A stretch of 32,000 nucleotides of DNA from Nitrosopumilaceae archaeon (GCA_040877685.1 JBBDNF010000019.1:2787-34786); one strand, 5' to 3'; counted from the stretch's first letter, positions 2,807 through 32,000 are shown. Numbers and translations: made by a program. Notes: generated from the sequence alone by a model not told the origin.

Positions 2807-2907
2807 GCAGGGGTATCGAAGCCCGGCCAACCGAGAAGGACTCAAGATCTTGGCAATGGGAAATCCTTTCCCTTAGGGGTTCGGGGGTTCAAATCCCTCC
2901 CCCTGCA
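2807..2907 (+). tRNA. tRNA-Leu(CAA), type II, with a roughly 16-nt intron at the canonical 37/38 position (about 2847..2862)
   Basis: Folded by hand. Acceptor GCAGGGG/CCCCTGC plus discriminator A. Anticodon stem AAGGA (2836-2840)/TCCTT (2864-2868). Loop CT-CAA-G[intron]A. Long variable arm TCCCTTAGGGGTTC. T arm GGGGG-TTCAAAT-CCCTC. No encoded CCA. Confidence 0.85.
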
Positions 2908-2917
2908 CTTTACGATC

Positions 2918-7857: not shown

Positions 7858-7945
7858 GTGTTGAATGGTATTTATTTTTTTAAATGATAATAGAAAGCTA
7901 AGTTGACTTATATTGCATATTTCTGACTTGAATTACTGAATAATA

Positions 7946-8213: not shown

Positions 8214-8359
8214 AAACTTTTATTCCTATCAGAAGAAGCAGATAGCAATAAATTTCCTCAAAAGACATTTTTTATACTATAAATTAATTTTAAAAACGTT
8301 AGTAAAGCATTTTTCGAAAATAGCTACTTTTAAAAAACATAAAAACAATCCACATCGAT

Positions 8360-9172: not shown

Positions 9173-9218
9173 TCCTGTCTCGGTACATTTTTTAATTGCA
9201 AAAAGTGTTTTAACCGTA

Positions 9219-17112: not shown

Positions 17113-18165
17113 ATGAAGGCAGCTCAAATTGTAACTCCTAAAGAACCACTTCAGATTAAGGATTTGGAAATTCCAAAACCAAAAGAATTTGAGGTTGTAG
17201 TAAAAGTGAAAGCGGTAGGAGTGTGCCACAGTGACTTGCACCTGTGGGAAGGAGGTTACGATGCAGGAGCTGGTTCATTTATGAAGGCAACAGACCGAGG
17301 TGTAAAATTTCCTGTAACTCCAGGTCATGAAGTTGTTGGAACTGTCAGTCAAATAGGAAGTTCAGTTCAAGGCATCAAGACAGGAGACGATGTTCTGGTA
17401 TATCCTTGGATTGGATGTGGTGTATGCCCTGCATGTAAGGTAGGAAATGAGAATCTTTGTGATGCTCCACGTTCACTTGGCGTCTTTCAAAACGGCGGTT
17501 ATGCAGAATATGTGCTAGTACCAAATTTCAAGTATCTAATCAAAGTGTCTGGCATTGATCTTGAAGGAACGGCATCGCTTGCCTGTTCTGGATTGACTGC
17601 GTTTACGGCTGTAAAAAAAGCCAATACAAACTCGGAACAGTTTCTTGTAATTATCGGAGCCGGTGGACTAGGGCTTATGGGTATACAAATTGCTAAGGCT
17701 GTAACAAAATCAACCATAATCTGCGTGGATTTAGATGACAACAAGCTTGTAGCCGCAAAAAAAATGGGAGCAGATCACACAATAAATTCAAAAGGTCAGG
17801 ATATAGTACAAAAAATAATTTCGATTTGTAACAACAAGGGTGCAGAATGTGTAATTGATTTTGTAAATACACCCACAACAGTAAAGACAGATCTTGCAGT
17901 TTTACGAAAACGTGGAAATCTGATCTTAGTTGGACTCTTCGGAGGCTCTGCAGAGATTGTTTTGCCAACAATTCCATTAAAGGCAATCACAATACAAGGA
18001 GCATACACCGGAAACTACAATGATTTAGTGGAATTAGTGAACCTTGCAAAGAGTGGGGTGATTAATCCAATAATATCAAAGAGATATCTACTTGGAGACG
18101 CAAACACTGCACTTGAAGATCTAAAACAAGGAAAAATAATAGGCCGTGCAGTCATAAACCCATAA
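17113..18165 (+). CDS. Zinc-dependent alcohol dehydrogenase (MDR family)
   Basis: GVCHSDLH, GHEVVG, structural-Zn CGVCPACKVGNENLC and the NAD fold IIGAGGLG, 350 aa. Confidence 0.92.
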   Translation: MKAAQIVTPKEPLQIKDLEIPKPKEFEVVVKVKAVGVCHSDLHLWEGGYDAGAGSFMKATDRGVKFPVTPGHEVVGTVSQIGSSVQGIKTGDDVLVYPWIGCGVCPACKVGNENLCDAPRSLGVFQNGGYAEYVLVPNFKYLIKVSGIDLEGTASLACSGLTAFTAVKKANTNSEQFLVIIGAGGLGLMGIQIAKAVTKSTIICVDLDDNKLVAAKKMGADHTINSKGQDIVQKIISICNNKGAECVIDFVNTPTTVKTDLAVLRKRGNLILVGLFGGSAEIVLPTIPLKAITIQGAYTGNYNDLVELVNLAKSGVINPIISKRYLLGDANTALEDLKQGKIIGRAVINP

Positions 18166-18239
18166 ACTGGGTAGAAACATTTCAGAATTTTGTGATATAA
18201 TGACAAAATAATATAAGCAAACCTTCCTTATTTTTCCTG

Positions 18240-18992
18240 TTGGCAGAAAAAGACACCAAGCAAAAATATGAACTAGCTTTTACGTATCTTAAAAACAAGC
18301 AAAGCATTTCTGCCTATAGCCTGTTTTTGGAGCTTGCAGGAAAAGAAGTTAAAAAGAATAGTTTTCGTGCAGGATTATTTTTTATGCTTGCAGCTGAATC
18401 CAAAGCTCAGCAAGGAAAGGATGGTAATGATGAGCTACTAAAAGCAGCTAAATTATATCTTGATCTTGCAAAAAAAGAAAAATCATACAACGCAAAACAA
18501 GCATATCTTTGTGCAACAAAATGTTTTCTGCGAGGAGGGCAATATGAAGACGCAAAGAGCGCGTTTGATAGAGCAAAAAAACTAGTTGTCAAGGTTGTGG
18601 AAGAAAAAAGACCAATAGTTGTTGTTGATGATAGCCCATCTATAGTAGTGAAACTAGAAAGTTACCTTAAGAAGCTGGGCTACAAGGACATTCATACTTT
18701 CAATACAGGTGCAGATGCGGTACATGCCTGCAAAAAATTAATAGAGTCATCACAAAACCCCATCATCCTGCTTGATATGGGTCTCCCTGATATGGCAGGT
18801 GATGTGGTAGCACGCCATCTGCTAGATTCAAAGCTTGACCTTTCTATTATTCTGATAACTGCAGACGAAAAAACCACGCAGAGGGTACAAAATACTATAA
18901 GCTGGGGAGCAACCGCCTTTATTCAAAAGCCATTTACTATCAATGAACTGCGACAAGCACTTGATATTGTTGAATCTGACGACGTCAGCTAA
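18240..18992 (+). CDS. Response regulator: N-terminal helical (TPR-like) domain plus C-terminal CheY-like receiver
   Basis: Receiver motifs VVVDDSPS, ILLDMGLPDMAG, ILITADE and FIQKPF. TTG start. No histidine kinase is adjacent. Confidence 0.85.
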   Translation: MAEKDTKQKYELAFTYLKNKQSISAYSLFLELAGKEVKKNSFRAGLFFMLAAESKAQQGKDGNDELLKAAKLYLDLAKKEKSYNAKQAYLCATKCFLRGGQYEDAKSAFDRAKKLVVKVVEEKRPIVVVDDSPSIVVKLESYLKKLGYKDIHTFNTGADAVHACKKLIESSQNPIILLDMGLPDMAGDVVARHLLDSKLDLSIILITADEKTTQRVQNTISWGATAFIQKPFTINELRQALDIVESDDVS

Positions 18993-19488
18993 GTAGTAAA
19001 AGCGACATATTTAGAAGGTTAATGTCATTCATGTGGATTTTATTTACCCTGTAATCTGAAATTTGTTCTGAGAATTTCTCAATTATTACTGATGTGGGGC
19101 TTTTGTGCACTTCTTCTAACTTCATAACTATGATCATGTTCCATTCACCATTGATTGTTGCAATAAAAAGATAGTTTGGCAGAGTCTTTACAAAATCCTT
19201 AATTGATTCTTGTATGGTGTCAAGTGATCTTGTAATTTTGAATTTTAAAAAAAGCACTTCAAACTCATCTGTGCTAGAGACATCACTTAGGACAGCCTTG
19301 TATCCTTTTATGATTCCGTTTTTTTCCAGCCGTTCTATTCTTTTTCGTATAGTCCTGTCCGATACATCAAGACCTGAATTTCTTAATTCCGTTGCAATCT
19401 CTTTTGATGGAGTTCGTGCATTTTTATTTAGAATTGCAATAATTTTTTGGTCTACCTTATCTAAGTTTGACCAATCGTCATTAGACAT
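18985..19488 (-). CDS. Lrp/AsnC-family transcriptional regulator
   Basis: DKVDQKIIAILNKNARTPSKEIATELRNSGLDVSDRTIRKRIERLEKNGIIKGYKAVL. The ORF-track version (to 19614) runs into the tRNA gene, so the Met at 19488 is taken as the start. Confidence 0.85.
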   Translation of the reverse strand: MSNDDWSNLDKVDQKIIAILNKNARTPSKEIATELRNSGLDVSDRTIRKRIERLEKNGIIKGYKAVLSDVSSTDEFEVLFLKFKITRSLDTIQESIKDFVKTLPNYLFIATINGEWNMIIVMKLEEVHKSPTSVIIEKFSEQISDYRVNKIHMNDINLLNMSLLLLS

Positions 19489-19528
19489 CGATTCTATACG
19501 GTTTGGAGCGCTTTTGAATTTTATGTTA

Positions 19529-19651
19529 TGGTCCCACGCGCAGGACTTGAACCTGCGACAACCCGGTTTCTGTAAGCCTGGTAGGCTGACATCAGTTAGC
19601 CAAGAGCCAACCACTACAGCCGGAAGCTCTACCAGGCTGAGCTAGCGTGGG
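19529..19651 (-). tRNA. tRNA-Tyr(GTA) with a 46-nt intron (19568..19613) at position 37/38 and a genomically encoded CCA
   Basis: Folded by hand on the minus strand. Acceptor CCCACGC/GCGTGGG (C1-G72, the archaeal Tyr identity pair). D arm GCTC-AGCCTGGTA-GAGC. Anticodon stem TCCGG/CCGGG. Loop CT-GTA-G[intron]A. T arm GCAGG-TTCAAGT-CCTGC. Discriminator A, then CCA (19529-19531). The intron has an internal helix TGGTTGGCT/AGCCTACCA, and its 3' end (CTTACAG) pairs with the anticodon region, giving a BHB-like structure. Confidence 0.85.
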
Positions 19652-19675
19652 ACTAGATTTCACGCTGTATTTTCG

Positions 19676-19685
19676 TATTAAATAA
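19676..19685 (-). promoter_or_regulatory. TATA box of tRNA-Tyr
   Basis: The minus strand reads ttatttaata at -25 to -34 from the tRNA 5' end. It lies in the 53-bp gap shared with the divergent integrase gene. Confidence 0.4.
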
Positions 19686-19704
19686 CTATCGAACGTAATA
19701 CTTT

Positions 19705-20988
19705 TTGATGGTAATATCTCAGTCCTTAAGTAACCTCGCTAAGCAGGATTTCCCGAAGATGCAGGTCCAGACTACACATAACAGGATTGAGAACTTTTTG
19801 GCAAAAAAGTTTCGCCTCTCTAGGAGCTATGCCACAAGGAAGAGCTATGAAACCGGATTAAACAAGTTCATAGAATTTGTAGGCAGCAAGTACGGTTTGA
19901 ATCTAGACAGCCTAGTCATACAGGCAAAGGAGATACACCAAGTCGACCCAATCCAGGTACTGGATGACTATTACAGCTACCTGTCATCTTACAAAATGGC
20001 TGGTTCAAAGGCATCTTACAGCAGAAGCACGATAAAGCACTACCTTACCGTAGCCAAGGAGTTTCTAAACAATGAAGGCTGCAGAATATACAACGAAGAT
20101 GTAAAGCAACGATTCAAGCTTCCACGAATCAGCTCAGTATACGAAAAGGGACTGACAAAGCAGATTATCAACAGGCTAATTCGACTTGCCAATCCAAAGC
20201 TTGCAACTGTTATTTTGATTGCGTGTTCAAGCGGTATGAGAATATCAGAGATTGTTCAGCTTAGATTATCTGATATTGATTTTGAAGCAAATCCAACCAC
20301 GATAACTATAAGATCAGAAACAACAAAGACACGCCAGACTCGAGTCACATGCCTCACATCAGAGGCAACACTTGCTCTCAAAGATTATCTGAAACAATAT
20401 CTTGGATGGAATGAAACTGACAAAGTTGACAGATATATCTTCTTGAACACTCATGAAGAAAAGATTTGCAACATTGAACGAAAGTTTGCAGAGAATGCTC
20501 ACAAAAATGCGCTCTTTAGAGGTCAAGACAAAAAACGACTCAAGTATCTGAGGCAGCAGTGTGAAACACTAGACAGAGAGGAGCTTTATTCACGAAGTGT
20601 AATTACAGCTAGAAACTCACTTGAGAATCAGCTAAGAAAGGTCATAGAATCGATACCTGAGCTTGGCATTAAAAACGAAAATAGTAGAAACTCGATTCAC
20701 TTTCATGCCTTCCGAGCTTGGTTTAAGACACAGGTTACTGACGCACACCAGTCTGACTTTGCGGAAGCATTGATGGGCCATACTAGCTTGAAACTCGTCT
20801 ATTATAGGCAAAATGAAAAAGCTCGCGCTGAAACATTTCTTGGAGTTGAACATGCACTTACTATTTCAGATACAGAAAAAATTGATAGAAACTATTCGGA
20901 GCTGCAAAGAGACAATCTTGAGCTAAGAGGAATTGTAGATAATCTATCAAGGCAATTAAGAAATCTTGAAAGAAAAATCATGAATTAA
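19705..20988 (+). CDS. int: Tyrosine recombinase / integrase
   Basis: Catalytic signature: Arg in ACSSGMRISEIVQL, H-x-x-R in IHFHAFRAWF, then GHTSLKLVYYRQ (His plus nucleophile Tyr). N-terminal SAM-like core-binding region and C-terminal coiled coil. TTG at 19705 or ATG at 19708. Confidence 0.88.
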   Translation: MMVISQSLSNLAKQDFPKMQVQTTHNRIENFLAKKFRLSRSYATRKSYETGLNKFIEFVGSKYGLNLDSLVIQAKEIHQVDPIQVLDDYYSYLSSYKMAGSKASYSRSTIKHYLTVAKEFLNNEGCRIYNEDVKQRFKLPRISSVYEKGLTKQIINRLIRLANPKLATVILIACSSGMRISEIVQLRLSDIDFEANPTTITIRSETTKTRQTRVTCLTSEATLALKDYLKQYLGWNETDKVDRYIFLNTHEEKICNIERKFAENAHKNALFRGQDKKRLKYLRQQCETLDREELYSRSVITARNSLENQLRKVIESIPELGIKNENSRNSIHFHAFRAWFKTQVTDAHQSDFAEALMGHTSLKLVYYRQNEKARAETFLGVEHALTISDTEKIDRNYSELQRDNLELRGIVDNLSRQLRNLERKIMN

Positions 20989-22104
20989 TTATTTTTCTAA
21001 GCCTTTTGCTTTTTTAATATAATTAGTAATTTCAAATAAATATTTGTCAATCTTATTTACTTGGTCAAATGAATAATTATATTTGTAATACGCCTCTTTG
21101 TATTTTGACTTCAAAATAAATTTCTCACCTTCCTTTTGGGTGGTTTCTGCATCTTTAAGATATTTTTTGACCCACCATAGAGCTGTCCACGCCTTCTCAT
21201 GCTCTTCTTTGGCTTTTTCATTCTTGAAGTTTACAGAATAAATTAGCTCTTGTGCTGTGTAAACTCCTGTTTTAATTGAGTCAATTTTTGAATTAACTGT
21301 AGACTGTTTTTTCAAAGTCTCCTTTTTATAATCAAATGATGTTTTTTGCTTGGTTTTTTCTGTTGATTCCTTCTTCTTTTCCGTTGTTTTCTTACTTTTT
21401 TCTACAATTGATTCTATCGTAAATTTCTTTTGTGGTGGTTTGGCATTGTATGCTTCATCGGAGATATTCATTACACTATAACTATAGCTACTGCCTTGTA
21501 GCTTTGCAAATATGGGAGGACAGTGAGGATCCCTATAATCCCCATCTTCACAATACGTATAGTAGATATTCTGATTATAGTGTACCCAGCCTTCAAAAAT
21601 TTCTCGCTCAAATCCTAAATAGTATAGAGCAAAATGTGAGAGCTCATGTGATAGTACCCATACAGGATCTCCATAATCAAAAGAAGGACAATCACATACC
21701 TCTATCCTTAATGGATCTTTTTTGTCACCATTGACCCAAGTAAAAAAGCCCCCAATATTATTTTCATGTAGAATCTCTCTGCCAAGACTTTTTGAATATA
21801 CCACTATGAGAATGTCAACATATGGGGGCGTGCTATACGATTCAAACTTTTTCTCTGATATACATAATGGTTCATAATAGAAGTGTTGGAGTCCATATGC
21901 AGAAAGATAAAGTGTAGTAATTTCGTTGTATTTGTTTGTAATTTGTATGTCGTAATTGTAACAGGATTTGTTGTGTGTTACGTAGACCATTTGATATGTT
22001 AATGTATCTGATGCAGAGTGTGTTGCATCTACTTGAGCTCTTGTACTTACTGAGAACAGTAGAATAATTATTAAAATTCCAGCCTTGGTAAGGCTAGTTT
22101 TCAT
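20989..22104 (-). CDS. Secreted protein with an HExxH (HELSH) zinc-metallopeptidase-like motif and a Lys-rich coiled-coil C-terminal half
   Basis: Signal peptide MKTSLTKAGILIIILLFSVSTRAQV. HELSH at aa 153-157 (nt 21634..21648). Several Cys residues. C-terminal KKTTEKKKESTEKTKQK low-complexity and helical region. Its stop codon abuts the integrase stop (TAATTA). Confidence 0.65.
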   Translation of the reverse strand: MKTSLTKAGILIIILLFSVSTRAQVDATHSASDTLTYQMVYVTHNKSCYNYDIQITNKYNEITTLYLSAYGLQHFYYEPLCISEKKFESYSTPPYVDILIVVYSKSLGREILHENNIGGFFTWVNGDKKDPLRIEVCDCPSFDYGDPVWVLSHELSHFALYYLGFEREIFEGWVHYNQNIYYTYCEDGDYRDPHCPPIFAKLQGSSYSYSVMNISDEAYNAKPPQKKFTIESIVEKSKKTTEKKKESTEKTKQKTSFDYKKETLKKQSTVNSKIDSIKTGVYTAQELIYSVNFKNEKAKEEHEKAWTALWWVKKYLKDAETTQKEGEKFILKSKYKEAYYKYNYSFDQVNKIDKYLFEITNYIKKAKGLEK

Positions 22105-22178
22105 GAACTGATATTCTACGGAATTTTAAATAAACCTGATCTTATTTTTTTGAACATTATGACGGTTTTTTACAATAT

Positions 22179-22478
22179 CTAGGCAATAATCCTAATATTC
22201 TTAGCCTTTGGTAAAGGTTCACATTTTTTGAAATACTGTCCATTTACTATAGCATATTCACTTTCTGTTTTGATACTGTGATTTAATTCTGGGATGATAT
22301 TCACTTTGACCGTGAAATTCTTGCTTGCGTCAGTAGAATTAGGGTTCATATTAGTTTGTTTTAGCGAGTCTTCAAGCAAGCTTCGAATCTTCTCACTTAC
22401 AGAGCAGTTTGATTTACCACATGATTCTAGTAACTGTTGGTATACCTGTGAATCTACCTTTGTACTTACGGTTTTCAT
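22179..22478 (-). CDS. Ribbon-helix-helix (CopG/Arc-like) protein with a C-terminal extension (RHH-1)
   Basis: N-terminus MKTVSTKVDSQVYQQLLESCGKSNCSVSEKIRSLLEDSL fits a strand-helix-helix pattern. It is paralogous to the RHH ORFs at 29883..30041 and 30946..31119. Confidence 0.6.
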   Translation of the reverse strand: MKTVSTKVDSQVYQQLLESCGKSNCSVSEKIRSLLEDSLKQTNMNPNSTDASKNFTVKVNIIPELNHSIKTESEYAIVNGQYFKKCEPLPKAKNIRIIA

Positions 22479-22528
22479 GTATAGTTTACCTGAAGTTTAC
22501 TAAGATCTAAAGTTTGTGATATCTCAAG
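22463..22528. repeat. Left copy of an imperfect direct repeat flanking the 310-aa ORFan
   Basis: Shares ACTTACGGTTT (11/11), ATAGTTTAC (9/9), GATCTAAA and GTTGTG/GTTTGTG...TCAAG with 23517..23560, in the same order. About 75-80% identity by eye. Confidence 0.5.
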
Positions 22529-22564
22529 AAAACCATGAATAGTAAATCTAACTATTTATTTTGA

Positions 22565-23497
22565 ATGGAATCTAAAAAAACAGAAGGTAAATTTGAGTTA
22601 GGAAAATGGACAGGCGGACCAGTAGGTCTTGCACAATTCTCCACATTTAAAATTGATACCACACCTGGTAATGCATTAGTAATAGAATATGATTTTCCTT
22701 GGGGAAGGGGTGATAGTTCAAACAAAGATTCTGCATTAGTACGTCCTTTTAGGAAAATACTTAGAGATGGTAAAGATCCAGGCAAAATAAATTATCTTTT
22801 TCATACAGATAATGACAAATATTATGTGTTAGGGTCTTTTGCTTATACTAATAATCATATTATTTTTTTTCCAGCTTTTGTTGACAGAACAATCGTAAAT
22901 TTTTATGAGACACAATTTATTGAGCAAGGAATACAACTCCATGTTGATCATTTCACGTTGGAAAATAACCTCCGTACTTGGCATGTTACTTTTGATGAAA
23001 AACAGGAACAAAAGACAAGAGTAAGAAAACTGAACACCAAAAATATTGATGAATATAATTTTTTATGGTTTATTTTAAGAATAAAATCATTAAGTGCTAT
23101 AGAGTTTGCGCCACAAAGACAAATTATGTTGCTGGAATCTACAAAGAGCGAAGTGATAAGACGTGCACCAATCATTAATAAGGCAAGGGAAAATGCTGTT
23201 TTTCAAGCCACAAAATTAGATGATAACTTGACGGAGGAATATTTCTGGCAATTCGAGTTTTTTGTTAATACCACACAGGATAGAAAAAATATTCCAAAAG
23301 TGCCAGTCACTGTGCAAGGAAACATAGATGCTGACATAAAAGATGCCAGAAAACAGGCTCATATTAGAATTCATCAAGTATTTCTGGATGGATTTAATGG
23401 TTGTATTATTATTAGAGTCTCAAAGATAATTGGAACTATTAAAACTCCAATACAATTCATAAGTGGACATGAGATCCAATACACCACGCCATCTTAA
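22565..23497 (+). CDS. Hypothetical protein (ORFan, 310 aa)
   Basis: Long ORF with no competing frame. No motif recognised. Bracketed by an imperfect direct repeat. Confidence 0.6.
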   Translation: MESKKTEGKFELGKWTGGPVGLAQFSTFKIDTTPGNALVIEYDFPWGRGDSSNKDSALVRPFRKILRDGKDPGKINYLFHTDNDKYYVLGSFAYTNNHIIFFPAFVDRTIVNFYETQFIEQGIQLHVDHFTLENNLRTWHVTFDEKQEQKTRVRKLNTKNIDEYNFLWFILRIKSLSAIEFAPQRQIMLLESTKSEVIRRAPIINKARENAVFQATKLDDNLTEEYFWQFEFFVNTTQDRKNIPKVPVTVQGNIDADIKDARKQAHIRIHQVFLDGFNGCIIIRVSKIIGTIKTPIQFISGHEIQYTTPS

Positions 23498-23516
23498 TTG
23501 TCAAAAGACATAGGTC

Positions 23517-23560
23517 ATAGTTTACTTACGGTTTACCATGATCTAAAAGTTGTGTTTCAA
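23517..23560. repeat. Right copy of the imperfect direct repeat flanking the 310-aa ORFan
   Basis: See the left copy. Sequence is catagtttacttacggtttaccatgatctaaaagttgtgtttcaag. Confidence 0.5.
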
Positions 23561-23699
23561 GGGTTCAAGTATTGCACTAAAGTTTGAAAAAAGTAACCAC
23601 TTTTCTTGTATAAAATTAACAAATTAAAATAAAACTTTACTCTGTGAGGACACAAAAATCACTATAACATAAAATTACTTCGTGGCTATGGCTTTTAGA

Positions 23700-24653
23700 T
23701 TATCTACAGAATCCAGCTGCCTGCAATTCTACAGTTTTTGTTGAAAATATCGAATAAGTATTTGACATCACAATATAGTATGTTCCTGGATTAAGAGTGA
23801 GATCAAATGTGTCATATCCTACTTTTCCACTATTATAGTATGTAGACGCACTTTCTCCCCTATCAAATAGATTGAATTGATTTTCATCAAGAATATACAC
23901 AATTATGTCATCTCCAAGGGCAGCACGTGCAGAAAATCCACCTTGTATTGTTGCTGTACATTGTAATGTAAAGTAGATAGAGGTATACGTGCCTGGTTCT
24001 ACTCTGTAAACAGAATCTACAATAGTTTCTCCTGAAAGTTGAAGATCTAATTTGCTTTGTTTTTGCTGATTTTTTTGGATTTCCTTGTTTAGTCGACTTT
24101 TAATTTCATCGACAATAGAAACTTGTTTTGTAGATTCAAATGGAATTGGAATGGTTAAGCCTAATAATTTAAAATATGCAGTACCGCTTACATGGAGATT
24201 AATTATTCCACCTGTATCAATTATAGATACAACAGCTGGGCTCAAACTGCTTTTTTGGAAATTTTGTAAAACTGAAATTTCTCTAGTTTCTCCAGGATTG
24301 ATTGTAGTGTCGATAGTACTATAACCACTGCCTACGGGTATGCCATTAATTGAAAGATCATATGACAAATCAGGAATGTATACTGGTAAAACTCCATAAT
24401 TGCTTAATCCAAAAATTAGATTCAGATTAATTCCATCAATTAAGTCAAATGCTGCACCAAGCCAATTGCCTGTCAAGAGGTTTAGTCCTAACTTGAGAAG
24501 GGTTGACCATGAAAAAGATGCCCAATCTATGCTATGAAAAGATACATCGTTTAGACTGACATGAATTTGAGTATAAGAATAAGCAACAAGTCCCAAAACA
24601 ATGACGATTATACCAATGATAACAGATATTGCTGCAACTATTGGTTTTCTCAC
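23700..24653 (-). CDS. Membrane-anchored protein with a LEA_2 (LEA14/NDR1-like) domain and a C-terminal beta-rich domain
   Basis: N-terminal TM IVAAISVIIGIIVIVLGLVAY. LEA_2-like pattern IHVSLNDVSF...LIFGLSNYGVLPVYIPDLSYDLSINGIPVGSG...INPGETREI. Family call is tentative. Confidence 0.6.
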   Translation of the reverse strand: MRKPIVAAISVIIGIIVIVLGLVAYSYTQIHVSLNDVSFHSIDWASFSWSTLLKLGLNLLTGNWLGAAFDLIDGINLNLIFGLSNYGVLPVYIPDLSYDLSINGIPVGSGYSTIDTTINPGETREISVLQNFQKSSLSPAVVSIIDTGGIINLHVSGTAYFKLLGLTIPIPFESTKQVSIVDEIKSRLNKEIQKNQQKQSKLDLQLSGETIVDSVYRVEPGTYTSIYFTLQCTATIQGGFSARAALGDDIIVYILDENQFNLFDRGESASTYYNSGKVGYDTFDLTLNPGTYYIVMSNTYSIFSTKTVELQAAGFCR

Positions 24654-24961
24654 AAATATTTGGCAATGTATAAGTTTATGAGTTTTTCAAGGATTATTTG
24701 ATTAGTTTGTTCGCGAAAATCTGCAACTGGTCGTAAAGTATTTTGTTTAAAGTGCATTTTAGTAAATATGATTCAAAACAAAATTCTGGAATTAAGAAAA
24801 CAACTCAGGAAATGCCAGATTGAACTAGTACAAAATTTCGGTACGTGGGAAGTAAAACGAAAAGAGGACGAATCTAGTGGTTCTTACACCGCTCCACAAT
24901 ACCTGATTATCACGATCCAAGTTAAGTAAGAGATTAAGGTATAATATTACGGCAAAAGGAG

Positions 24962-25564
24962 TTGAACGAGCCAAAATGTTACCGATGTGGGAAACCAATA
25001 AGCTTTGATTCTAAAATAAAATCCAAAACAGGAAAATTCATTCCTTTAGATCCTAATACAAACACTCCCCATAATTGTTCAGAATTGGCTTTTGATTCTA
25101 ATATTCCATCAAAACCAAAGCAAACCATTAAGAAGGGAGTTCCCATTGCAATAGCTTCGGTTTTAGTCATAATCATTGTAATTGCAGGCATTGGATTTCT
25201 TACCAATTCAGATAATATTCAAAATAAAAACAATATTCCAATATCAAATTATAATTCTGATAATGCACAATACTTTACAGGCAAAGTAACTGGAATCATA
25301 GATGGTGACACCATTAAAGTTGATGGTAAATCCGTTAGACTGGCTTTGGCTTCTACTCCAGAACTAAACCAACCTATGGGTCAAGCAGCAAAAAAGTATA
25401 TTCAAGAAATATGCCCTATAGGCTCAACAGTTACTGTTGATGAAGATAATGGCCAAACACAAGGTAGCTATGGTAGAATTGTTGCAAAGGTTACATGTAA
25501 TGGTGTGAATCTAAATCAAGCAATTATTGAAAAACTCATATTTAATGATCGAAATATTTTATGA
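24962..25564 (+). CDS. Zn-finger / TM / staphylococcal-nuclease-like (SNase) protein
   Basis: N-terminal CYRCGK...HNC, TM at aa 59-80, then an SNase core IIDGDTIKVDGKSVRLALASTPE...SYGRIVAKV...NLNQAIIE. Ser replaces the Ca-ligand Asp of the DTPE motif. The C-terminal helices look truncated. TTG start. Confidence 0.7.
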   Translation: MNEPKCYRCGKPISFDSKIKSKTGKFIPLDPNTNTPHNCSELAFDSNIPSKPKQTIKKGVPIAIASVLVIIIVIAGIGFLTNSDNIQNKNNIPISNYNSDNAQYFTGKVTGIIDGDTIKVDGKSVRLALASTPELNQPMGQAAKKYIQEICPIGSTVTVDEDNGQTQGSYGRIVAKVTCNGVNLNQAIIEKLIFNDRNIL

Positions 25565-25634
25565 AATTATGTTTGAAACAACTTTTTGTAACATTAAAAC
25601 TAATCTTAAATAATTGTAGAGATTTAATGATTCA

Positions 25635-25973
25635 ATGAAAAAAATGATAATTATAATATCATTGACTATCATAATAGCTGCAATTACTACTTCAACATTT
25701 GCAAGTGCTGCATCTGGAAAACCTGCACATATACTTGGGTTTTATCAAGTGACAAACTCTGTTACTTTATCTAGTAATGGAAATGTTGAGATGGTTTGTA
25801 ATGATAACGATATTGTAACTGGCGGGGGATTTTCAACTTCCGGTGGTCCTTATCAAAATGTACAGCGTAATGGGCCATCTTCAGATAGCTCTTGGATTGT
25901 AGCCATAACTATAGGTCCGGATCAAGGTCCGATAACTCTTAATGGATGGGCTATCTGTACGAATGTTCGATAA
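25635..25973 (+). CDS. Small secreted protein (112 aa), hypothetical
   Basis: Signal peptide MKKMIIIISLTIIIAAITTSTFASAAS, a Cys pair (MVCNDND...WAICTN) and a GGGF motif. Confidence 0.6.
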   Translation: MKKMIIIISLTIIIAAITTSTFASAASGKPAHILGFYQVTNSVTLSSNGNVEMVCNDNDIVTGGGFSTSGGPYQNVQRNGPSSDSSWIVAITIGPDQGPITLNGWAICTNVR

Positions 25974-26341
25974 AGATACTCCACTAAACTTTTTTGTTTT
26001 TCCAAACAATACTCTACTACTCCCACTATACATAAAAAGTTGGCAAATACTTAGACCTAAATACATTCTATCTTTTATGGAGAATAATAGTGACCACAGA
26101 AAAAAATATGAAGCATTTTATCAAATGCAAATTCTATAATGAAAATAACGTCTATTAATGGAACTCCATCAGGGTTTATTTTTAAAAAAAAATAGGTTTC
26201 AATTATTCAATGAAAAAATTTTACCGCCAGGTAAGAGTTGAGGTAAAAAGATTTGACACTTTTCTAATTATTAGACATGAAATTATAGATGTAATATAAT
26301 TCTAGAATTAAGCTAATCTAACATATCTGGAGATAATTGAA

Positions 26342-29300
26342 CTATTTACATCCAGTAGTAACTAAACTATCTGTTCCAATTATATCAGTTCCACCAAAGG
26401 TCTTTCCTTTAAGAACAGAACTAGTATCACCACATTGGATACCTGTGTCCTGAGTTGCAAAATGTAACACCATATCTAAATCACCGTCACCATCAACATC
26501 CCCCATGTGTCCTTTTCCATGAGACTCTACTGCATTATTAATTCCAAATTTGACTGTAAGTGGGTTTACAGATGATGCATCAAATGTACTAGTAGTAATT
26601 ATTGCAACAGGTGTAACTCCATTTGATTTTGGATTAACAGAATTTGGATAAGATCCTGGTTTGACGTCAATTACAATACTAATTTCAGTTGTATCACATG
26701 CATCTCCAATTCCATTATGATTAGAGTCTGCTTGATCTGAATTTGGTACTGTAGGACAATTATCAACCGCATTATCTACTCCATCAGAGTCTGAATCACC
26801 TGTTGGGGTAGGGTCGCAAACATCTCCAATTCCATCAGCATCAGTGTCAGCTTGATCTGAATTTGGTACTGTAGGACAGTTGTCTATTGCGTTGTCTACT
26901 CCATCATTATCATAGTCACCATGTGGGGTAACATCGCAAACATCGCCAATTCCATCAGCATCAGTGTCTAGTTGATCTGAATTTGGTACTGTAGGACAAT
27001 TATCAACCGCATTATCTACTCCATCAGAGTCTGAATCACCTGTTGGGGTAGGGTCGCAAACATCTCCAATTCCATCAGCATCAGTGTCAGCTTGATCTGA
27101 ATTTGGTACTGTAGGACAGTTGTCTATTGCGTTGTCTACTCCATCAGAATCATCATCACCGTTTGGTGTTGCATCACACAAGTCACCGATACCGTCTCCA
27201 TCAGTATCTAGTTGATTTGCATTAGAAACCAAAGGACAGTTATCAACTGCGTTGTCTACTCCATCAGAATCATCATCACCGTTTGGTGTAAGATCACATG
27301 CATTGCCTATTCCATCTCCATCAGTGTCTGCTTGGTCTGTGTTTGGAGTAGTTGGGCAATTATCTACATCTCCTGAAATTGTATCTCCGTCAATGTCATT
27401 GTCTGGATCTAATGGATACAAATCGCATACGTCACCAATACCATCGCTATCGGTATCTAGTTGATCAGGATTGTATACCGTGACGCAATTATCTACAAGA
27501 TTATCAATTCCATCGTTATCCGTATCTCCATTTGGAGTTGTATCACAAACATCCCCAATACCATCTCCATCAGTATCTAGTTGATCTGGATTAGTAGTAG
27601 TTGGACAATTATCATTGGCATCAACAATTCCATCGTTATCTAAATCAGATACAGAAAATGATATGGATGAAATTGCTGTACTTTCTGAATTTCCAATTAC
27701 CGATACAGTGTTAGATTGTTGATTGGCTACGTATATGATGTTAGTTGCAGAGTTTACCGCAATACCACTAGGCTCTATGCCTACTAAAATGGTATGTGTG
27801 ACAACATTTGTTACTCCGTCGATTACTGAAACTGAACTTGATTGAGAATTTGATACATAGATAGTATCAGTAGATGGATTTACTGTGACACCGCCTGGAA
27901 CAGAACCTACGGGAATAGTTGTTGTAACGGTGTTTGTTGCTCCATCTATTACAGATACAGTGTTAGGGGTAGCACTAGCTACATAGATTGTGTTTGTTGT
28001 TGGGTTTACTGCAATTCCGCCAACCCCAGAACCTACTGGAATGGTAGTTGTAACGGTGTTTGTTGCTCCATCTATTACGGTTACTGACGCAGAATCTTGG
28101 TTAGACACATAAATCAAATTGGTTGTTGGGTTTGCTGCAATCTTGCTTGGACTATTTACACCAGTAATTGTTGAAGTGATTGTATTTGTTGCACCATTAA
28201 TTACAACAACATCGTTGTTAAAGTAACGTGATGCATAAACTGTGTTGGTTGTTGGGTTTACTGCCACCCCAAGTCCATTAGATGACAATGGTATGGTAGT
28301 AGTGACAGTATTTGATGCCATATTGATTACATGGATAGAACTTCCTTCAAAGCTTACAACATACATTGTGTTTGTTGTTGGATTGATTGCTATTTGTTGT
28401 GGATTAAATCCAACTGGGATGGTAGCTGAAACTGTATTTGTCAACCCATTGATTACAGAGACACTTGAGGTCCCATAATTTGATACATAGATAGTGTTTG
28501 TTGCAGGATCTACATTAACTGCAATAGGAATAGAAAAGCCTGAAATTGATGATGTTACAGTTCCACCAACATTACTTGTTGCTTTTGCATCGATTGTATG
28601 AGATCCTGGAGATAACACACCTGTAGTAAACGACCAAGATGTTGTTCCAGTAGCTAATGCAAACGCACCACCATCGATAGACACTTCCACTTTTTGTATT
28701 CCAGAAGGATCTGATGCAGTACCAGTAATTGTAATGGAATCAGTACCAACAACAGAAGCATTTGCAGGAGAAGTGATTGTTATGGATGCAGATGGGGTAA
28801 ATATTTCCAATGCTGCGCTAGGACTAGTATCGAATCCTCCTGCCACATACAACTTGCCGTTAATTACATCATCACTAGTAGAACCTCTTGGGGACGGCAG
28901 TGACGTTTCTGTAGCCCAAGTATTAGCAATAGGATCATAAACTTCAGTTGTATCAATCGAGCCGAGCCCGTTGTTACCTCCTGCAACATAGAGCTTGCCA
29001 TCAATACCACCAACAGATGCCACAAATCGTGGAGTTGGCATAGAGACTTTGGTAGTCCAGCTGTTTGTCACCGGATCATATACATCAAGGAACGCGCCTA
29101 GTATTGCTCCACTTGTATCATAACCACCGACAGCATAGAATTTTCCGTCGAGTACTCCGCCACTTCCAGATCCATGAGTATTGGGCGGAGACGATAAAGA
29201 TGCCCAAGTATTAGCAATAGGATCATAAACTTCAAAGATTTTTCTATATCCGCTAAAACCATCACATGAGGTCAAAAGGTAGAGTTTACCGGCAATAACA

Positions 29301-29734
29301 CCAGAAGATGAGCAACCACTCAGATGAGACAGTGATGCTTTGGCAGTCCAGCTATTTGTAGCAGGATCGAACTCGTATACTTTATTTGTAGGAATAAAAG
29401 AACTTGGAGCATTCCAGCCTCCAACGACGTATAATTTTCCGTTAATAGATTCAGCAGCACCTTGGTACAGCCTATCAGGCATTGATGGCTTTGTAGACCA
29501 CGAGTCAGTTACAGGGTCATACACTTCGACGGCATAAGAAGCACCAGCCGCACCAACATTACCACCAACGACATACAGATTATCATTAATATTGGCAGCC
29601 ATCGGAGAGTGACGTGCTGTCGGCATCGGGGTTTTTGTCTCCCAGCTGCCCACAGCAAACGTCTGCATCGGAACAAACATCAAAGAGATTAATGCAAAAA
29701 TCAAAGCAACAGAAAAACAAACCAAATATTTCAA
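26342..29734 (-). CDS. 1130-aa secreted multidomain surface protein: Kelch propeller, Ig-like domain, YVTN-type beta-propeller repeats, about 10 thrombospondin type-3 (Ca-binding) repeats, C-terminal FG-GAP/VCBS-like DxDxDG region
   Basis: Signal peptide. Six repeats of xxGKLYVVGG...VYDPxxNSW (about 28810-29660). ITITSP...VEVSIDGG Ig-like domain (about 28540-28810). Seven repeats of NPTTNTIYVxN...VSVIDGxTNTV (about 27660-28540). Repeated DxDxDGxxDxxDNCPxxxNxDQxDxDxDGIGDxCD (about 26700-27650). C-terminal GDVDGDGDLD. Confidence 0.9.
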   Translation of the reverse strand: MKYLVCFSVALIFALISLMFVPMQTFAVGSWETKTPMPTARHSPMAANINDNLYVVGGNVGAAGASYAVEVYDPVTDSWSTKPSMPDRLYQGAAESINGKLYVVGGWNAPSSFIPTNKVYEFDPATNSWTAKASLSHLSGCSSSGVIAGKLYLLTSCDGFSGYRKIFEVYDPIANTWASLSSPPNTHGSGSGGVLDGKFYAVGGYDTSGAILGAFLDVYDPVTNSWTTKVSMPTPRFVASVGGIDGKLYVAGGNNGLGSIDTTEVYDPIANTWATETSLPSPRGSTSDDVINGKLYVAGGFDTSPSAALEIFTPSASITITSPANASVVGTDSITITGTASDPSGIQKVEVSIDGGAFALATGTTSWSFTTGVLSPGSHTIDAKATSNVGGTVTSSISGFSIPIAVNVDPATNTIYVSNYGTSSVSVINGLTNTVSATIPVGFNPQQIAINPTTNTMYVVSFEGSSIHVINMASNTVTTTIPLSSNGLGVAVNPTTNTVYASRYFNNDVVVINGATNTITSTITGVNSPSKIAANPTTNLIYVSNQDSASVTVIDGATNTVTTTIPVGSGVGGIAVNPTTNTIYVASATPNTVSVIDGATNTVTTTIPVGSVPGGVTVNPSTDTIYVSNSQSSSVSVIDGVTNVVTHTILVGIEPSGIAVNSATNIIYVANQQSNTVSVIGNSESTAISSISFSVSDLDNDGIVDANDNCPTTTNPDQLDTDGDGIGDVCDTTPNGDTDNDGIDNLVDNCVTVYNPDQLDTDSDGIGDVCDLYPLDPDNDIDGDTISGDVDNCPTTPNTDQADTDGDGIGNACDLTPNGDDDSDGVDNAVDNCPLVSNANQLDTDGDGIGDLCDATPNGDDDSDGVDNAIDNCPTVPNSDQADTDADGIGDVCDPTPTGDSDSDGVDNAVDNCPTVPNSDQLDTDADGIGDVCDVTPHGDYDNDGVDNAIDNCPTVPNSDQADTDADGIGDVCDPTPTGDSDSDGVDNAVDNCPTVPNSDQADSNHNGIGDACDTTEISIVIDVKPGSYPNSVNPKSNGVTPVAIITTSTFDASSVNPLTVKFGINNAVESHGKGHMGDVDGDGDLDMVLHFATQDTGIQCGDTSSVLKGKTFGGTDIIGTDSLVTTGCK
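26732..27146. repeat. Perfect 175-bp direct duplication at 240-bp spacing inside the TSP3-repeat coding region (26732..26906 = 26972..27146)
   Basis: Line-by-line comparison: 26732-26906 and 26972-27146 are identical. Flanking units are diverged copies. The duplication corresponds to a duplicated 80-aa double TSP3 unit. Confidence 0.85.
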
Positions 29735-29774
29735 TTTAAATTACGACAGATTGCCAATATTTAAAGAAGATCAT

Positions 29775-29833
29775 TTTGTAAAAAATTCATATCACGATAT
29801 AATTATTCTATTATTATTTGTAAAAAATTCATA
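29775..29833. repeat. 17-bp perfect direct repeat TTTGTAAAAAATTCATA (29775-29791 and 29817-29833) upstream of the large surface-protein gene
   Basis: Read directly. The copies are 42 bp apart (four helical turns) in the 148-bp gap between RHH-2 and the 1130-aa gene. Confidence 0.6.
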
Positions 29834-29882
29834 AAATATTAAAGTTATAGTAAAAATTACAATATCTATTTTTGCCATGATG

Positions 29883-30041
29883 CTATAATCCCGGATTTGA
29901 TTTAAGCGGCCAATTTTGTTCATTGTGGGTTATCATAAACAATAGTAACGCAGAAGGAGTACAACCTAGCCTGTTACACGCATCAAGTAATTTCATATGT
30001 TCATCTTCGTTTAGCTTTGTTGAAACAACGCGGTAGACCAT
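29883..30041 (-). CDS. Ribbon-helix-helix (CopG-like) protein, 52 aa (RHH-2)
   Basis: Own translation: MVYRVVSTKLNEDEHMKLLDACNRLGCTPSALLLFMITHNEQNWPLKSNPGL. It has a strand-helix-helix pattern and aligns with RHH-1. Below the ORF-track cutoff. Confidence 0.55.
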   Translation of the reverse strand: MVYRVVSTKLNEDEHMKLLDACNRLGCTPSALLLFMITHNEQNWPLKSNPGL

Positions 30042-30060
30042 GGTAGACCAGAGGTAGACA
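30032..30060. promoter_or_regulatory. Iteron/operator-like triple repeat GGTAGACCA, GGTAGACCA, GGTAGACA (10-11 bp phasing)
   Basis: Plus-strand copies at 30032-30040, 30042-30050 and 30053-60. On the gene strand this reads tGTCTACCtcTGGTCTACCaTGGTCTACC, covering the ATG of RHH-2 and lying downstream of a TATA-like tctataat. Confidence 0.55.
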
Positions 30061-30128
30061 GCTCGATCTAAGTTTTTCGATTATAGACACACAGCATGTT
30101 TTTTCGAACAAATCGGGGGGATACTATT

Positions 30129-30713
30129 TTACTCTTTATCGATAAACTCATTTGCTGTTTTATGTGTCAATTTAGCACAGAAACCTGTAACATCATAAGT
30201 TCCATCATGAATGTTCTTAGTAGAATAACTAGTGATACAATCAAAGTATTTTTTCATTGTCCTCTCGTCGACTGGTCCTAGCTTCACTTTAATTAGTGTC
30301 AACAATAGCTTTGTACCGAAAAATGGATAGATTTCTGATTGTATTCTCAGCAAATCAGCTATTTCTTTTAGTTTTATTAACACATCACTCCGAGGTGGTC
30401 TTCCATCATAAAGCAAGGATGATGATGTTGTAGTATTTAGTTCACAATCGGCTGCATCTGCAAACATACCCAAGTCAAGTGCTTTAGCAATATTTCTTAG
30501 AATTTCTTTAACACTTTCAGTACTAAAGAGAGAATTTGTTATAATGCCATGTTCATTCTTAAAGTGCCACCAAAGACCAGCCAAGTTTTTGAAAACCCTT
30601 ACATGATTATCTCCCTTGATGGTTCTAACACATTCTGGACACTTTACTCTGATCTTGGTATAATTGTGAGCAAAATCCACGCAGTGTTTATCTAAAGTAG
30701 AATCTAAAGTCAC
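30129..30713 (-). CDS. Hypothetical protein with an N-terminal C2H2-like zinc finger (194 aa)
   Basis: CPECVRTIKGDNHVRVFKNLAGLWWHFKNEH. GTG start in a GTGA overlap with the upstream AbrB-like gene. Confidence 0.6.
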   Translation of the reverse strand: MTLDSTLDKHCVDFAHNYTKIRVKCPECVRTIKGDNHVRVFKNLAGLWWHFKNEHGIITNSLFSTESVKEILRNIAKALDLGMFADAADCELNTTTSSSLLYDGRPPRSDVLIKLKEIADLLRIQSEIYPFFGTKLLLTLIKVKLGPVDERTMKKYFDCITSYSTKNIHDGTYDVTGFCAKLTHKTANEFIDKE

Positions 30714-30949
30714 GTAGCAATCTCCTCGCTTGATTGCATCACTCGTTGGTTGCCAGGAACACTAGGCCCAATGAGTGATAATTTACCGTCTTTTACTACT
30801 AAATCAAAGTCTAGATTATCGCCTGTTACTCCAGTTTCAGCAAGTATAGGCTTTGGAATTATCATTATGTAAGATTGGTCTTGTAGTTTTAGACTGGATG
30901 CAAGTTCACTAGACAAAAGAAAAGAGGGGATTTTGGCTAGCTTTTTCAT
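30710..30949 (-). CDS. SpoVT/AbrB-like DNA-binding protein (79 aa)
   Basis: IMIIPKPILAETGVTGDNLDFDLVVKDGKLSLIG fits the swapped-hairpin pattern. ATGA overlap with upstream RHH-3. Confidence 0.5.
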   Translation of the reverse strand: MKKLAKIPSFLLSSELASSLKLQDQSYIMIIPKPILAETGVTGDNLDFDLVVKDGKLSLIGPSVPGNQRVMQSSEEIAT

Positions 30950-31119
30950 TGCTCTACATCACCTGACACAACATCATCATTATCTGAATTCTTGTTGCAG
31001 AGCTGTGCTGCATTAGTCATTACTCGCTGTAAGATTTCGTCAAATGATTCTCCTTTTGCTCCAAACTTTGCTAGCTGTTCTTTGGTTTCCTCGTTCAGTG
31101 AAACTGTTGTTCGTTTCAT
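30946..31119 (-). CDS. Ribbon-helix-helix (CopG-like) protein, 57 aa (RHH-3)
   Basis: Own translation: MKRTTVSLNEETKEQLAKFGAKGESFDEILQRVMTNAAQLCNKNSDNDDVVSGDVEQ. Its stop overlaps the next start. Below the ORF-track cutoff. Confidence 0.6.
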   Translation of the reverse strand: MKRTTVSLNEETKEQLAKFGAKGESFDEILQRVMTNAAQLCNKNSDNDDVVSGDVEQ

Positions 31120-31128
31120 AACCATAAT

Positions 31129-31596
31129 ATGGTGAATAAACTTAATAGGAAAAGTTGCCCACTTTTTAATGATTTGTTAATGAAATGTAGATGGTGTGGC
31201 TTCAATTTGGTAAATATCTATGTTGCCGACAAAAGAACCAAAAACAAAGAACCGATTGGAAAAATTTGTATACACTGTGACCTTGTTACAGCACCTACCG
31301 AATACTTTCAAAAGATTAAACAAGAAAAACATCAACAAAAAGAAGATCAGAACAAGAAACCTCAATTTTCAACGTTTAAGGAAAAATGCTACAAATGTCA
31401 ATCAAAACGATATTGGAAAAGAAAATTTCCGCCAAAGAAAGTCAAATATCAACATTCAGACGGCTCATGGGGTGAACAATTAAACAATCCCTACATTCGT
31501 TATACCTGTAGAAGATGTAACAGTGTATGGAGAGTATCCCTACCCATGCCTTACCCAATTCCCAAAAAATATCTGAAATCTATTCTTTCAAAATAG
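31129..31596 (+). CDS. Basic multi-zinc-ribbon protein (155 aa)
   Basis: CxxC pairs: CRWCG, CIHCD, CYKCQ, CRRCN, plus a Lys-rich linker. The annotated start is only 9 bp from divergent RHH-3, so the internal Met at 31180 (MKCRWCG) may be the real start. Confidence 0.55.
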   Translation: MVNKLNRKSCPLFNDLLMKCRWCGFNLVNIYVADKRTKNKEPIGKICIHCDLVTAPTEYFQKIKQEKHQQKEDQNKKPQFSTFKEKCYKCQSKRYWKRKFPPKKVKYQHSDGSWGEQLNNPYIRYTCRRCNSVWRVSLPMPYPIPKKYLKSILSK

Positions 31597-31766
31597 GCAC
31601 AAAATTGCGATGTTAAACCAACCAACAACTTTTAATAACTATCGATAGTTTGTTTACAAATTCCATAATTTTGAAAAATTTGTTGATTTTTACATTCAAA
31701 TTAAAAATAAACCCGATCTGCCAACACTATATAAGAAACTACCCTAAACACGATCATGTGTCTGGG

Positions 31767-32000
31767 ATGTCAGCATTAGAAGGAGGTTACATCTGTGCTC
31801 CCTATTTGCATAACCACCCTTCAATAGAGCTGAAAGATAGCTGGGAAAAATCAAAAGAGGTAGAGGACATGTACTTTGTGACTGCTACGTTTTCTGAAGA
31901 CGGCAGCGCCTATTTTCCTTCGTCCTCAAACCACTATATCCTTGCCAGGTTCAAAGACAACAAAAAGATGAAAAAAGAGATTGAAAAATTCAGGCAGGAC
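31767..32000 (+). CDS. Partial ORF (78 codons, open to window end), hypothetical
   Basis: Own translation: MSALEGGYICAPYLHNHPSIELKDSWEKSKEVEDMYFVTATFSEDGSAYF... A TATA-like actatataag lies about 32-41 bp upstream. No stop before position 32000. Confidence 0.4.
   Translation, partial: MSALEGGYICAPYLHNHPSIELKDSWEKSKEVEDMYFVTATFSEDGSAYFPSSSNHYILARFKDNKKMKKEIEKFRQD

Follow-up and report, generated by a model that had tools for sequence, protein, structure and literature searches.

The 32,000-nt stretch of Nitrosopumilaceae archaeon DNA that was analysed here (GCA_040877685.1, JBBDNF010000019.1:2787-34786; hereafter the window) very probably contains, at 19693-31645, an integrated mobile element of 11,953 bp (counting one core copy) that is of the thaumarchaeal cryptic integrated element (CIE) type and was recently acquired. 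We assign this reading a probability of about 0.88. The element begins beside a tRNA-Tyr gene with an integrase gene, and its insertion target appears to be the core promoter of this tRNA gene, i.e. the B recognition element (BRE) and TATA box, and not the gene body. To our knowledge, there are no genetic tools for ammonia-oxidising archaea, and few of their mobile elements have been characterised. With the element described here, a small one of 12 kb, the boundaries are known to the base pair and the attachment (att) sites attB, attP, attL and attR are defined; it also encodes an intact integrase, and close relatives offer natural empty sites.

Boundaries and empty sites

A previous reading of the window, made from the sequence alone, had described an accessory island of at least 12 kb (19529-32000) that follows 19.5 kb of housekeeping genes. 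The left 19 kb indeed encode housekeeping functions (HemA, HemB, a siroheme-decarboxylase-like protein, TFB, S8e, ScpA, ScpB, ADH, a response regulator and an Lrp-like protein), and the island stands, but not its extent: it ends at 31645, and the open reading frame (ORF) from 31767 is a core gene. The features that delimit the element are the following.

19529-19651, minus strand: tRNA-Tyr(GTA) with a 46-nt intron, found by intron-aware ARAGORN; host gene, outside the element
19681-19692, plus strand: attL core AATAACTATCGA, from the repeat search; left-flank homology of empty-site contigs stops at 19692
31634-31645, plus strand: attR core AATAACTATCGA, from the repeat search; right-flank homology of empty-site contigs begins at 31631
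31767-32000 (runs off the window), plus strand: RF, host gene (orthologues have about 203 aa), no Pfam family; conserved beside tRNA-Tyr in relatives

The 12-bp direct repeat AATAACTATCGA is exact, with one copy in the spacer between tRNA-Tyr and the integrase gene and the other just past the last small ORF, and it is part of an extended att block, TT[A/T]AATAACTATCGA, that matches at 14 of 15 positions (19678-19692 and 31631-31645). The sequence-only reading had expected attR to be either very short or beyond 32000 and had proposed a downstream search for a promoter-derived repeat; this search led to the copy at 31634-31645, and attR is thus very short (12 bp) and lies inside the window.

The delimitation is carried by the state of this site in relatives. 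A scan of the genome collection with the Lrp-like protein gave 47 Nitrosopumilaceae and Nitrosotalea loci. Of these, 37 contain RF as well as tRNA-Tyr, and in 35 of them the RF orthologue is separated from the 5' side of tRNA-Tyr by 135-166 bp. In the window, this distance is 12,115 bp, and RF marks the return to the core genome after the element. If window 19632-19692 is joined to 31646-31796, the reconstructed empty site has a spacer of 162 bp and aligns colinearly with the empty sites of the relatives. In addition, the metagenome collection was scanned with a degenerate pattern matching attB, attP, attL or attR, and all five contigs that matched carry attB. Their sequence equals the left flank of the window, a single core and the right flank, one single-nucleotide polymorphism apart. 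The flanking DNA of these contigs has an identity of 81-98% with the window (for four of them, 89-98%), ScpA/ScpB are 96-99% identical, and RF shows 88-99% amino acid identity in the four contigs holding it (L093, L094, L095 and L097). Their blastn breakpoints at 19692 and 31631 leave a 15-bp common block. In total, there are about 40 empty sites (35 genome loci and 5 metagenome contigs). Because the breakpoints of the empty-site contigs coincide with the short repeat, the element most likely ends inside the window and comprises 11,953 bp, and because relatives with such similar flanks have empty sites, the insertion is likely to be recent. The alignment to relatives that had been suggested by the sequence-only reading thus provided empty tRNA-Tyr sites as well as exact junctions, and the placement in the cryptic integrated class is supported by the breakpoints that lie exactly at the 12-bp repeat. 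The decayed island that the same reading had considered as an alternative is disfavoured by the perfect cores, the intact integrase and the empty sites in close relatives.

The composition, for which a comparison had also been proposed, deviates from the core as well. The GC content is 0.358 in the element (0.339 without the gene for the protein p1130) and 0.383 in the core, and the GC content at third codon positions (GC3) is 0.20-0.34 in cargo genes versus 0.26-0.44 in core genes. In tetranucleotide distance, all nine 3-kb windows of the element exceed all 17 core windows, although these windows overlap and the repeats of p1130 contribute.

In the lineage of the window, attB forms a perfect 14-bp palindrome, AACTATCGATAGTT (window 31641-31654), which is centred on the core end. 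It was considered as a core-binding site of the integrase and set aside, as conservation in other genera and relatives does not extend to its right half. Three irregular loci at the tRNA-Tyr site (L048, L047 and L039) were candidates for further elements, of which L048 and L039 were dismissed, as ordinary genes were found there (TBP, carbamate kinase, glyoxalase; a small ORF).

The putative promoter region of tRNA-Tyr as target site

In the sense of the tRNA, the core reads TCGATAGTTATT and occupies positions -41 to -30 from the mature 5' end of tRNA-Tyr. It is therefore wholly outside the tRNA body, 30-41 bp upstream, and the site is intergenic. The integrase thus lies at the 5' or promoter side of the tRNA gene, as previously noted, and it is equally correct that a tRNA-derived repeat is absent elsewhere in the window (none of 11 nt or more). 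The core overlaps a TATA-like sequence, GTTATTTAATAC, at -35 to -24 of tRNA-Tyr, with the BRE position just upstream, and the alignment of the empty sites shows the motif TTTCGTATTAAATAACTATCGAT in all of them, nearly invariant.

19675-19693, minus strand: putative tRNA-Tyr core promoter, from the empty-site alignment; nearly invariant among relatives

A comparable sequence, GTTATATAAT, is found at -30 to -21 of the tRNA-Ser gene in the same window. As the core is duplicated on insertion, attL retains BRE and TATA of tRNA-Tyr, and the TATA-like box of RF is situated beyond attR. The insertion is probably neutral for both tRNA-Tyr and the divergent RF. If these promoter assignments are correct, the conserved landing pad of an archaeal integrase can be the core promoter that drives an essential tRNA gene, in place of the tRNA body, and the duplication of the core would rebuild the tRNA promoter.

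The tRNA-Tyr gene is conserved across about 45 related loci. Neither default ARAGORN nor an Rfam scan at gathering threshold detects a tRNA anywhere in the window, and tRNA-Tyr is missed because of its 46-nt intron. The second tRNA gene of the window, tRNA-Ser(CGA) with a 16-nt intron (2807-2908, plus strand), is missed by both tools as well. A 209-aa ORF on the minus strand (18985-19614) that runs through tRNA-Tyr is an over-extension of the Lrp/AsnC-like gene, whose real start lies near 19485 (MSNDDWSNLD...), as in all orthologues.

The integrase, its family and the cargo

The sequence-only reading had recognised a 427-aa tyrosine recombinase 53 bp from tRNA-Tyr, and this is confirmed, with the modification that the true start is probably further downstream.

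19705-20988, plus strand: tyrosine integrase, 427-aa ORF with C-terminal coiled coil (PF00589, E=2.3e-17; phrog_1 integrase, E=1e-24)
19708-19718, plus strand: second conserved motif, ATGGTAATATC, upstream of the integrase ATG at 19759
19724-19733, plus strand: putative integrase TATA box, CCTTAAGTAA, 35 bp upstream of the ATG at 19759

The ORF begins 53 bp from the 5' end of tRNA-Tyr and is transcribed divergently. Its PF00589 score of 63.7 bits (gathering cutoff 27.1) places the protein in the tyrosine recombinase superfamily, and R179, H334xxR337, H359 and Y366/Y367 are invariant in 22 family sequences, the catalytic box HFHAFR corresponding to HxxR. The family alignment furthermore shows that the C-terminal coiled coil is conserved and that a variable insertion is present within the catalytic domain. 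Upstream of the integrase genes, a TATA-like C[C/T]TTAA[G/C]TAA is found 32-38 bp before a conserved ATG (MQ[I/V]Q) in all ten integrases examined; the motif RTGRYWWTAWC is likewise present upstream of the ten, and usually also an ACTAT-type core. In the window, the TATA-like motif lies within the first 18 codons of the ORF (19705-19758), and it is conserved as DNA at synonymous positions in 10/10 family members. In L002, in-frame stops separate the upstream motif from the integrase ATG. Because of these conserved upstream motifs and the in-frame stops, the integrase probably starts at 19759 and comprises 409 aa, the N-terminal “SQSLSN” extension being translated promoter sequence. Many database entries of this integrase family may be N-terminally over-extended. 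The gene is a single intact ORF. From the end of the core, the distance is 12 bp to this ORF and 66 bp to its probable start.

The best PDB match of the integrase is XerA (4a8e), a partial match with E=7e-6. With the XerA model NF040815 of NCBIfam, the integrase reaches 78.9 bits, whereas the equivalog cutoff is 220, and judged by its sequence it is not XerA. As signs that would speak against an island, the sequence-only reading had named an invariant gene order in all relatives, a core-like composition and a XerA-type recombinase; the gene order past 19.7 kb is absent from relatives, the composition differs, and the score is 79 bits with a XerA cutoff of 220 bits. Relatives of the integrase were found neither in GenBank phages nor in 2.9 million IMG/VR contigs (single sequence, and alignment against IMG/VR).

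In Nitrosopumilaceae, there are more than 600 homologues of this integrase with 53-79% identity over the full length. The closest one from another genome (P0003 in L084, 79% identity) follows the same ScpB-ScpA-ADH block and tRNA-Tyr, and the left junction is identical to that of the window (...TTTCGTATTAAATAACTATCGA, followed by different element sequence). At the same site, between RF and tRNA-Tyr, another Nitrosopumilaceae metagenome-assembled genome (L010) contains a decayed insert of 3.4 kb (6470-9835). In this insert, a 54-aa C-terminal integrase fragment abuts RF and is accompanied by ORFs for secreted, membrane and winged helix-turn-helix proteins, an organisation unlike that of the window. 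In every context examined (L001, L002, L004, L085-L088, L098-L100), the integrase lies at the edge of a housekeeping block and faces variable ORFan cargo. The loci differ: the integrase follows PNP_UDP_1 in L001, L004 and L098, a CBS gene in L085 and L086, AsnC-like genes in L002, and UbiA in L099. In case of L001, a 15-bp repeat, CATC[T/G]ACAACTATAA (14/15), bounds an element of 10.6 kb. In case of L004, the 12-mer TTTTAATCATCT is an uncertain att candidate that would give 7.6 kb, and for L002, L085, L087, L099 and L100 no boundary repeat was callable within 10 kb of flank. The L004 locus also holds, about 7-8 kb downstream of the family integrase, genes for a protein-primed-type PolB (PF03175) and HEPN_Swt1 (18154-19974); the candidate attR at 17570 would put PolB in a second, adjacent element. 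Together with the integrase, p194 and p79 recur in 7/9 distinct elements. The cargo of sister elements includes OLD-like TOPRIM ATPases, TIR, HEPN_AbiV, HEPN_Swt1, GmrSD/EVE, a histidine kinase and hydrolases.

In the window, the following genes (ribbon-helix-helix is abbreviated RHH) accompany the integrase.

20989-22104, minus strand: p371, secreted, with signal peptide and HELSH (HExxH) motif, putative metalloprotease (from sequence; no family match); cargo
22179-22478, minus strand: p99, RHH/CopG-like small DNA-binding protein (weak PHROG CopG/Arc matches; 56% homologue in L002/L003)
22565-23497, plus strand: p310, beta-rich (AlphaFold2 model, pLDDT 82, pTM 0.84)
23700-24653, minus strand: p317, N-terminally anchored membrane protein, LEA_2 (PF03168, E=1.5e-6); cargo
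24962-25564, plus strand: p200, Zn ribbon, transmembrane segment and staphylococcal-nuclease-like domain (PF00565, E=2e-5; phrog_452 endonuclease, E=2.6e-12); cargo
25635-25973, plus strand: p112, small secreted protein (signal peptide in sequence; no family match); cargo
26342-29734, minus strand: p1130, secreted, 1130 aa, with Kelch propeller, Ig domain, YVTN-type beta-propeller and at least eight thrombospondin type-3 repeats (Pfam: TSP_3, E=2e-69; Kelch_1, E=1e-43; Big_7; Lactonase/YNCE); cargo
29883-30041, minus strand: p52, RHH-like small protein (weak RelB match, E=0.046; similar to the N-terminus of p99)
30129-30713, minus strand: p194, C2H2-type Zn finger and helical (winged-helix-like) domain (25 homologues); backbone gene
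30710-30949, minus strand: p79, AbrB/MazE-like small protein (PF04014, weak, E=0.054; 33-55% homologues in other elements); backbone gene
30946-31125, minus strand: p59, RHH, DUF7557/VapB-like (PF24434, E=2.6e-6; homologue in L001); backbone gene
31129-31596, plus strand: p155, two CxxC...CxxC Zn ribbons (from sequence; weak phrog_9494 match); last gene of the element

The genes of p59, p79 and p194 form an operon, and five of the element's proteins are secreted or membrane-bound, in agreement with the secreted or envelope cargo noted earlier. That reading had also counted three RHH paralogues, an AbrB-like protein and four Zn-finger proteins. One RHH protein is significant (p59, DUF7557) and the two others are weak (p99 and p52), the AbrB-like protein amounts to one weak AbrB/MazE-like match (p79), and three proteins are clearly Zn-binding (p200, p194 and p155). 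Its statement that replication and virion genes are absent holds: Pfam, PHROGs and NCBIfam detected no replication, packaging, capsid, virion or conjugation families in the cargo, within the sensitivity of these tools. For the cargo of the window, PADLOC likewise reported no defence system. The structure models of p310 and p194 gave no hallmark match; for p310, there was no match in PDB or BFVD, and for p194 (AlphaFold2, pLDDT 74) there were only weak winged-helix and Zn-finger matches. There are 16 homologues of p310, one of which occurs in a context without integrase in the stretch shown. A p310 homologue is known from N. adriaticus. A 40%-identical homologue, P0154, lies on a 47-kb contig labelled Rhabdochlamydiaceae bacterium, which is either mis-binned or reflects a cross-domain transfer. 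For an archaeal mobile-element cargo, the architecture of p1130 with Kelch, Ig-like and YVTN-type domains and calcium-binding thrombospondin type-3 repeats is unusual. Its gene has an overall GC content of 0.41 and a GC3 of only 0.23, like other cargo.

Mobility, alternatives and relation to known systems

How could such an element integrate? A circular form with attP (...CTTTTAATAACTATCGAACGTAATAC...), 12 bp upstream of the integrase ORF, may have recombined with the chromosomal attB, and this reaction would be catalysed by the element's own tyrosine integrase according to the lambda paradigm (type II), in which the integrase gene is kept intact. The attP junction of the excised form would then be CAACAACTTTTAATAACTATCGAACGTAATACTTTTTGATGG and the attB junction CGTATTAAATAACTATCGATAGTTTGTTTAC. 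By means of the duplicated core, attL would rebuild BRE and TATA for tRNA-Tyr, and the divergent RF would keep its own promoter beyond attR. For the integrase itself, the TATA-like box CCTTAAGTAA may serve as the promoter element of a leaderless mRNA that begins at 19759. The small DNA-binding proteins p59, p79 and p194, and perhaps also p155, could regulate maintenance and excision, and the other genes would be exchangeable cargo, which in the window encodes a nuclease and secreted or membrane proteins and in the sister elements includes defence genes. The element would be replicated passively within the chromosome, because it has no recognisable replication, virion or conjugation genes.

Several points weigh against a recently acquired, mobile element. 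The 12-bp repeat alone is weak evidence, as a match of 12 nt or more between spacer and downstream sequence arises in 3.2% of Markov simulations; per shuffled window, 0.17 matches to the 12-mer with at most one mismatch are expected by chance. The promoter assignments are based on motif position and conservation, and the regulator roles of p59, p79 and p194 on weak fold or family resemblance. Seven of the 13 proteins have no functional assignment, and a replication or structural function could hide among these. Moreover, with regard to current mobility, the metagenome scan revealed no attP or excised circle, and raw-assembly (Logan) contigs of the same population show the integrated state only, reading through attR. 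Two independent Logan contigs, L091 and L092, are 100% identical to window 29876-31659 and 29876-30922, respectively. They share a break at 29876, and the longer one, which ends at 31659, extends 14 bp beyond the attR core; such breaks could be branch points of the assembly graph that result from population heterogeneity.

What alternatives exist for the proposed mobile element? It could be an immobilised, decaying genomic island that entered by site-specific recombination and has since lost excision and transfer. The failure to detect an excised form, the lack of replication and transfer genes, and the clearly decayed relative at the same site in L010 agree with such a fate. However, the two att cores are perfect, the full-length integrase possesses all catalytic residues and is preceded by the conserved upstream motifs, the conserved backbone genes are intact, and the empty sites in relatives with 81-98% (mostly 89-98%) identical flanks indicate a recent insertion, and we therefore regard an island in decay as rather unlikely. 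Alternatively, the element could be a provirus or virus satellite of an undescribed archaeal virus group with unrecognisable structural and replication proteins. Krupovic et al. (PMC6563490) suggest that novel viruses or plasmids may account for many of the cryptic elements, and p310 with its confident beta-rich model and its lack of known relatives, the five secreted or membrane-bound proteins, and the protein-primed PolB near the sister locus L004 could be seen in this light. Yet neither the 2.9 million IMG/VR contigs nor GenBank phages contain members of the integrase family, p310 is without a match in BFVD and has one homologue in a context without integrase in the stretch shown, and no ATPase, packaging gene or PHROG structural match was found. 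Family-wide conservation is moreover limited to the integrase and small DNA-binding proteins while the remainder varies, and the candidate attR of L004 would leave PolB outside that element, which altogether makes a viral origin quite improbable. A chromosomal housekeeping role of the recombinase (as a XerA-like or regulatory enzyme) beside an ordinary variable region is effectively refuted: the family is indeed large and well conserved over its full length, and XerA and XerC/D come out best among solved structures and in NCBIfam, but the score stays far below the XerA cutoff, the integrase gene and the whole 12 kb are absent from the empty-site relatives, and the family occupies at least four different chromosomal loci, always at an island edge.

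How does an integrated element of this kind relate to known systems? Elements that target tRNA genes are said to follow the paradigm of Williams 2002, and CalSub-E1 is reportedly a 5'-distal thaumarchaeal case. Like these, the element of the window adjoins a tRNA gene, uses a highly conserved sequence and preserves the tRNA gene by a crossover duplication. Unlike these, the crossover at -41 to -30 lies in the promoter, on the 5' side, and no tRNA-derived repeat is involved. With the archaeal XerA proteins (P. abyssi 4a8e, T. acidophilum 5hxy), the integrase shares the tyrosine recombinase superfamily, but it is about 120 residues longer, has no conserved chromosomal position and is missing in empty-site relatives. 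In SSV-type (type I, suicidal) integrases, the att site inside the gene leads to int(N) and int(C) parts, whereas the ORF of the window is intact and att lies upstream. The type II archaeal integrases (pNOB8 or lambda paradigm), reportedly described by She et al., are closer. As in these systems (PMC8371274), the integrase gene survives integration undivided, with attP next to it and not within. The differences are HxxR instead of the R...YxxR...Y of pNOB8-type integrases, an att core of 12-15 bp instead of 40-50 bp, and a target that is not a tRNA gene body (PMC8371274), in addition to the C-terminal coiled coil and the variable insertion in the catalytic domain.

The element belongs to a known class, the CIEs as defined by Krupovic et al. 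2019 (PMC6563490), and what distinguishes it is the promoter target together with a recognisable family backbone. The att sites of thaumarchaeal elements were reported to be 8-26 bp long, 15/68 elements were intergenic, and most were smaller than 20 kb (PMC6563490). In accordance with CIEs, the element has a tyrosine integrase at one end, short direct-repeat att sites, an intergenic target and a typical size, and it encodes mostly ORFans and RHH, helix-turn-helix or Zn-finger regulators without virus, conjugation or replication hallmarks (PMC6563490). The flanking direct repeats, the empty sites in relatives and the lack of virus, casposon and conjugation hallmark genes conform to this class. 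In contrast, none of the surveyed elements targets a tRNA-Tyr locus or has a similar att site (PMC6563490, Table S2), and the overlap of att with a promoter is a topic not discussed there (“promoter” occurs 0 times). Furthermore, apart from the integrase, signature genes were reported to be lacking in CIEs (PMC6563490), whereas the family of the window element has a recurrent backbone of integrase, p194 and p79, with or without p59. There is thus a coherent family with a recognisable backbone in a class that so far has been defined only by the absence of signature genes. Krupovic et al. considered such elements as candidates for vectors or integration tools for thaumarchaea (PMC6563490).

A more general proposal has to remain tentative, with chances that we estimate as slightly short of even. 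The more than 600 integrase homologues may stand for small integrative elements of Nitrosopumilaceae that form a widespread, so far undescribed family, whose backbone would consist of a coiled-coil integrase of about 410 aa and of Zn-finger/winged-helix-like, AbrB-like and RHH proteins. Their attP would be part of a conserved module that precedes the integrase gene (ACTAT-type core, RTGRYWWTAWC, TATA-like CTTTAAGTAA), and insertion would occur at short AT-rich promoter- or gene-end-like sites, here BRE/TATA of an essential tRNA, that are rebuilt thereby. Such elements would shuttle defence genes (OLD/TOPRIM, TIR, HEPN, GmrSD) and cell-surface cargo without having own replication or transfer genes. 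If this is true, the family depends on a helper, such as a virus, a vesicle or a conjugative element, or on natural DNA uptake.

At the PNP_UDP_1 locus, a CBS gene lies between PNP and the integrase in L085 and L086 (9490-9954), and it is not present in L001, L004 and L098. In the arrangements with and without the CBS gene alike, identity over the 47 bp that precede the integrase is 85-87%. This suggests either tandem or nested insertions, or an element that carries part of the attP arm.

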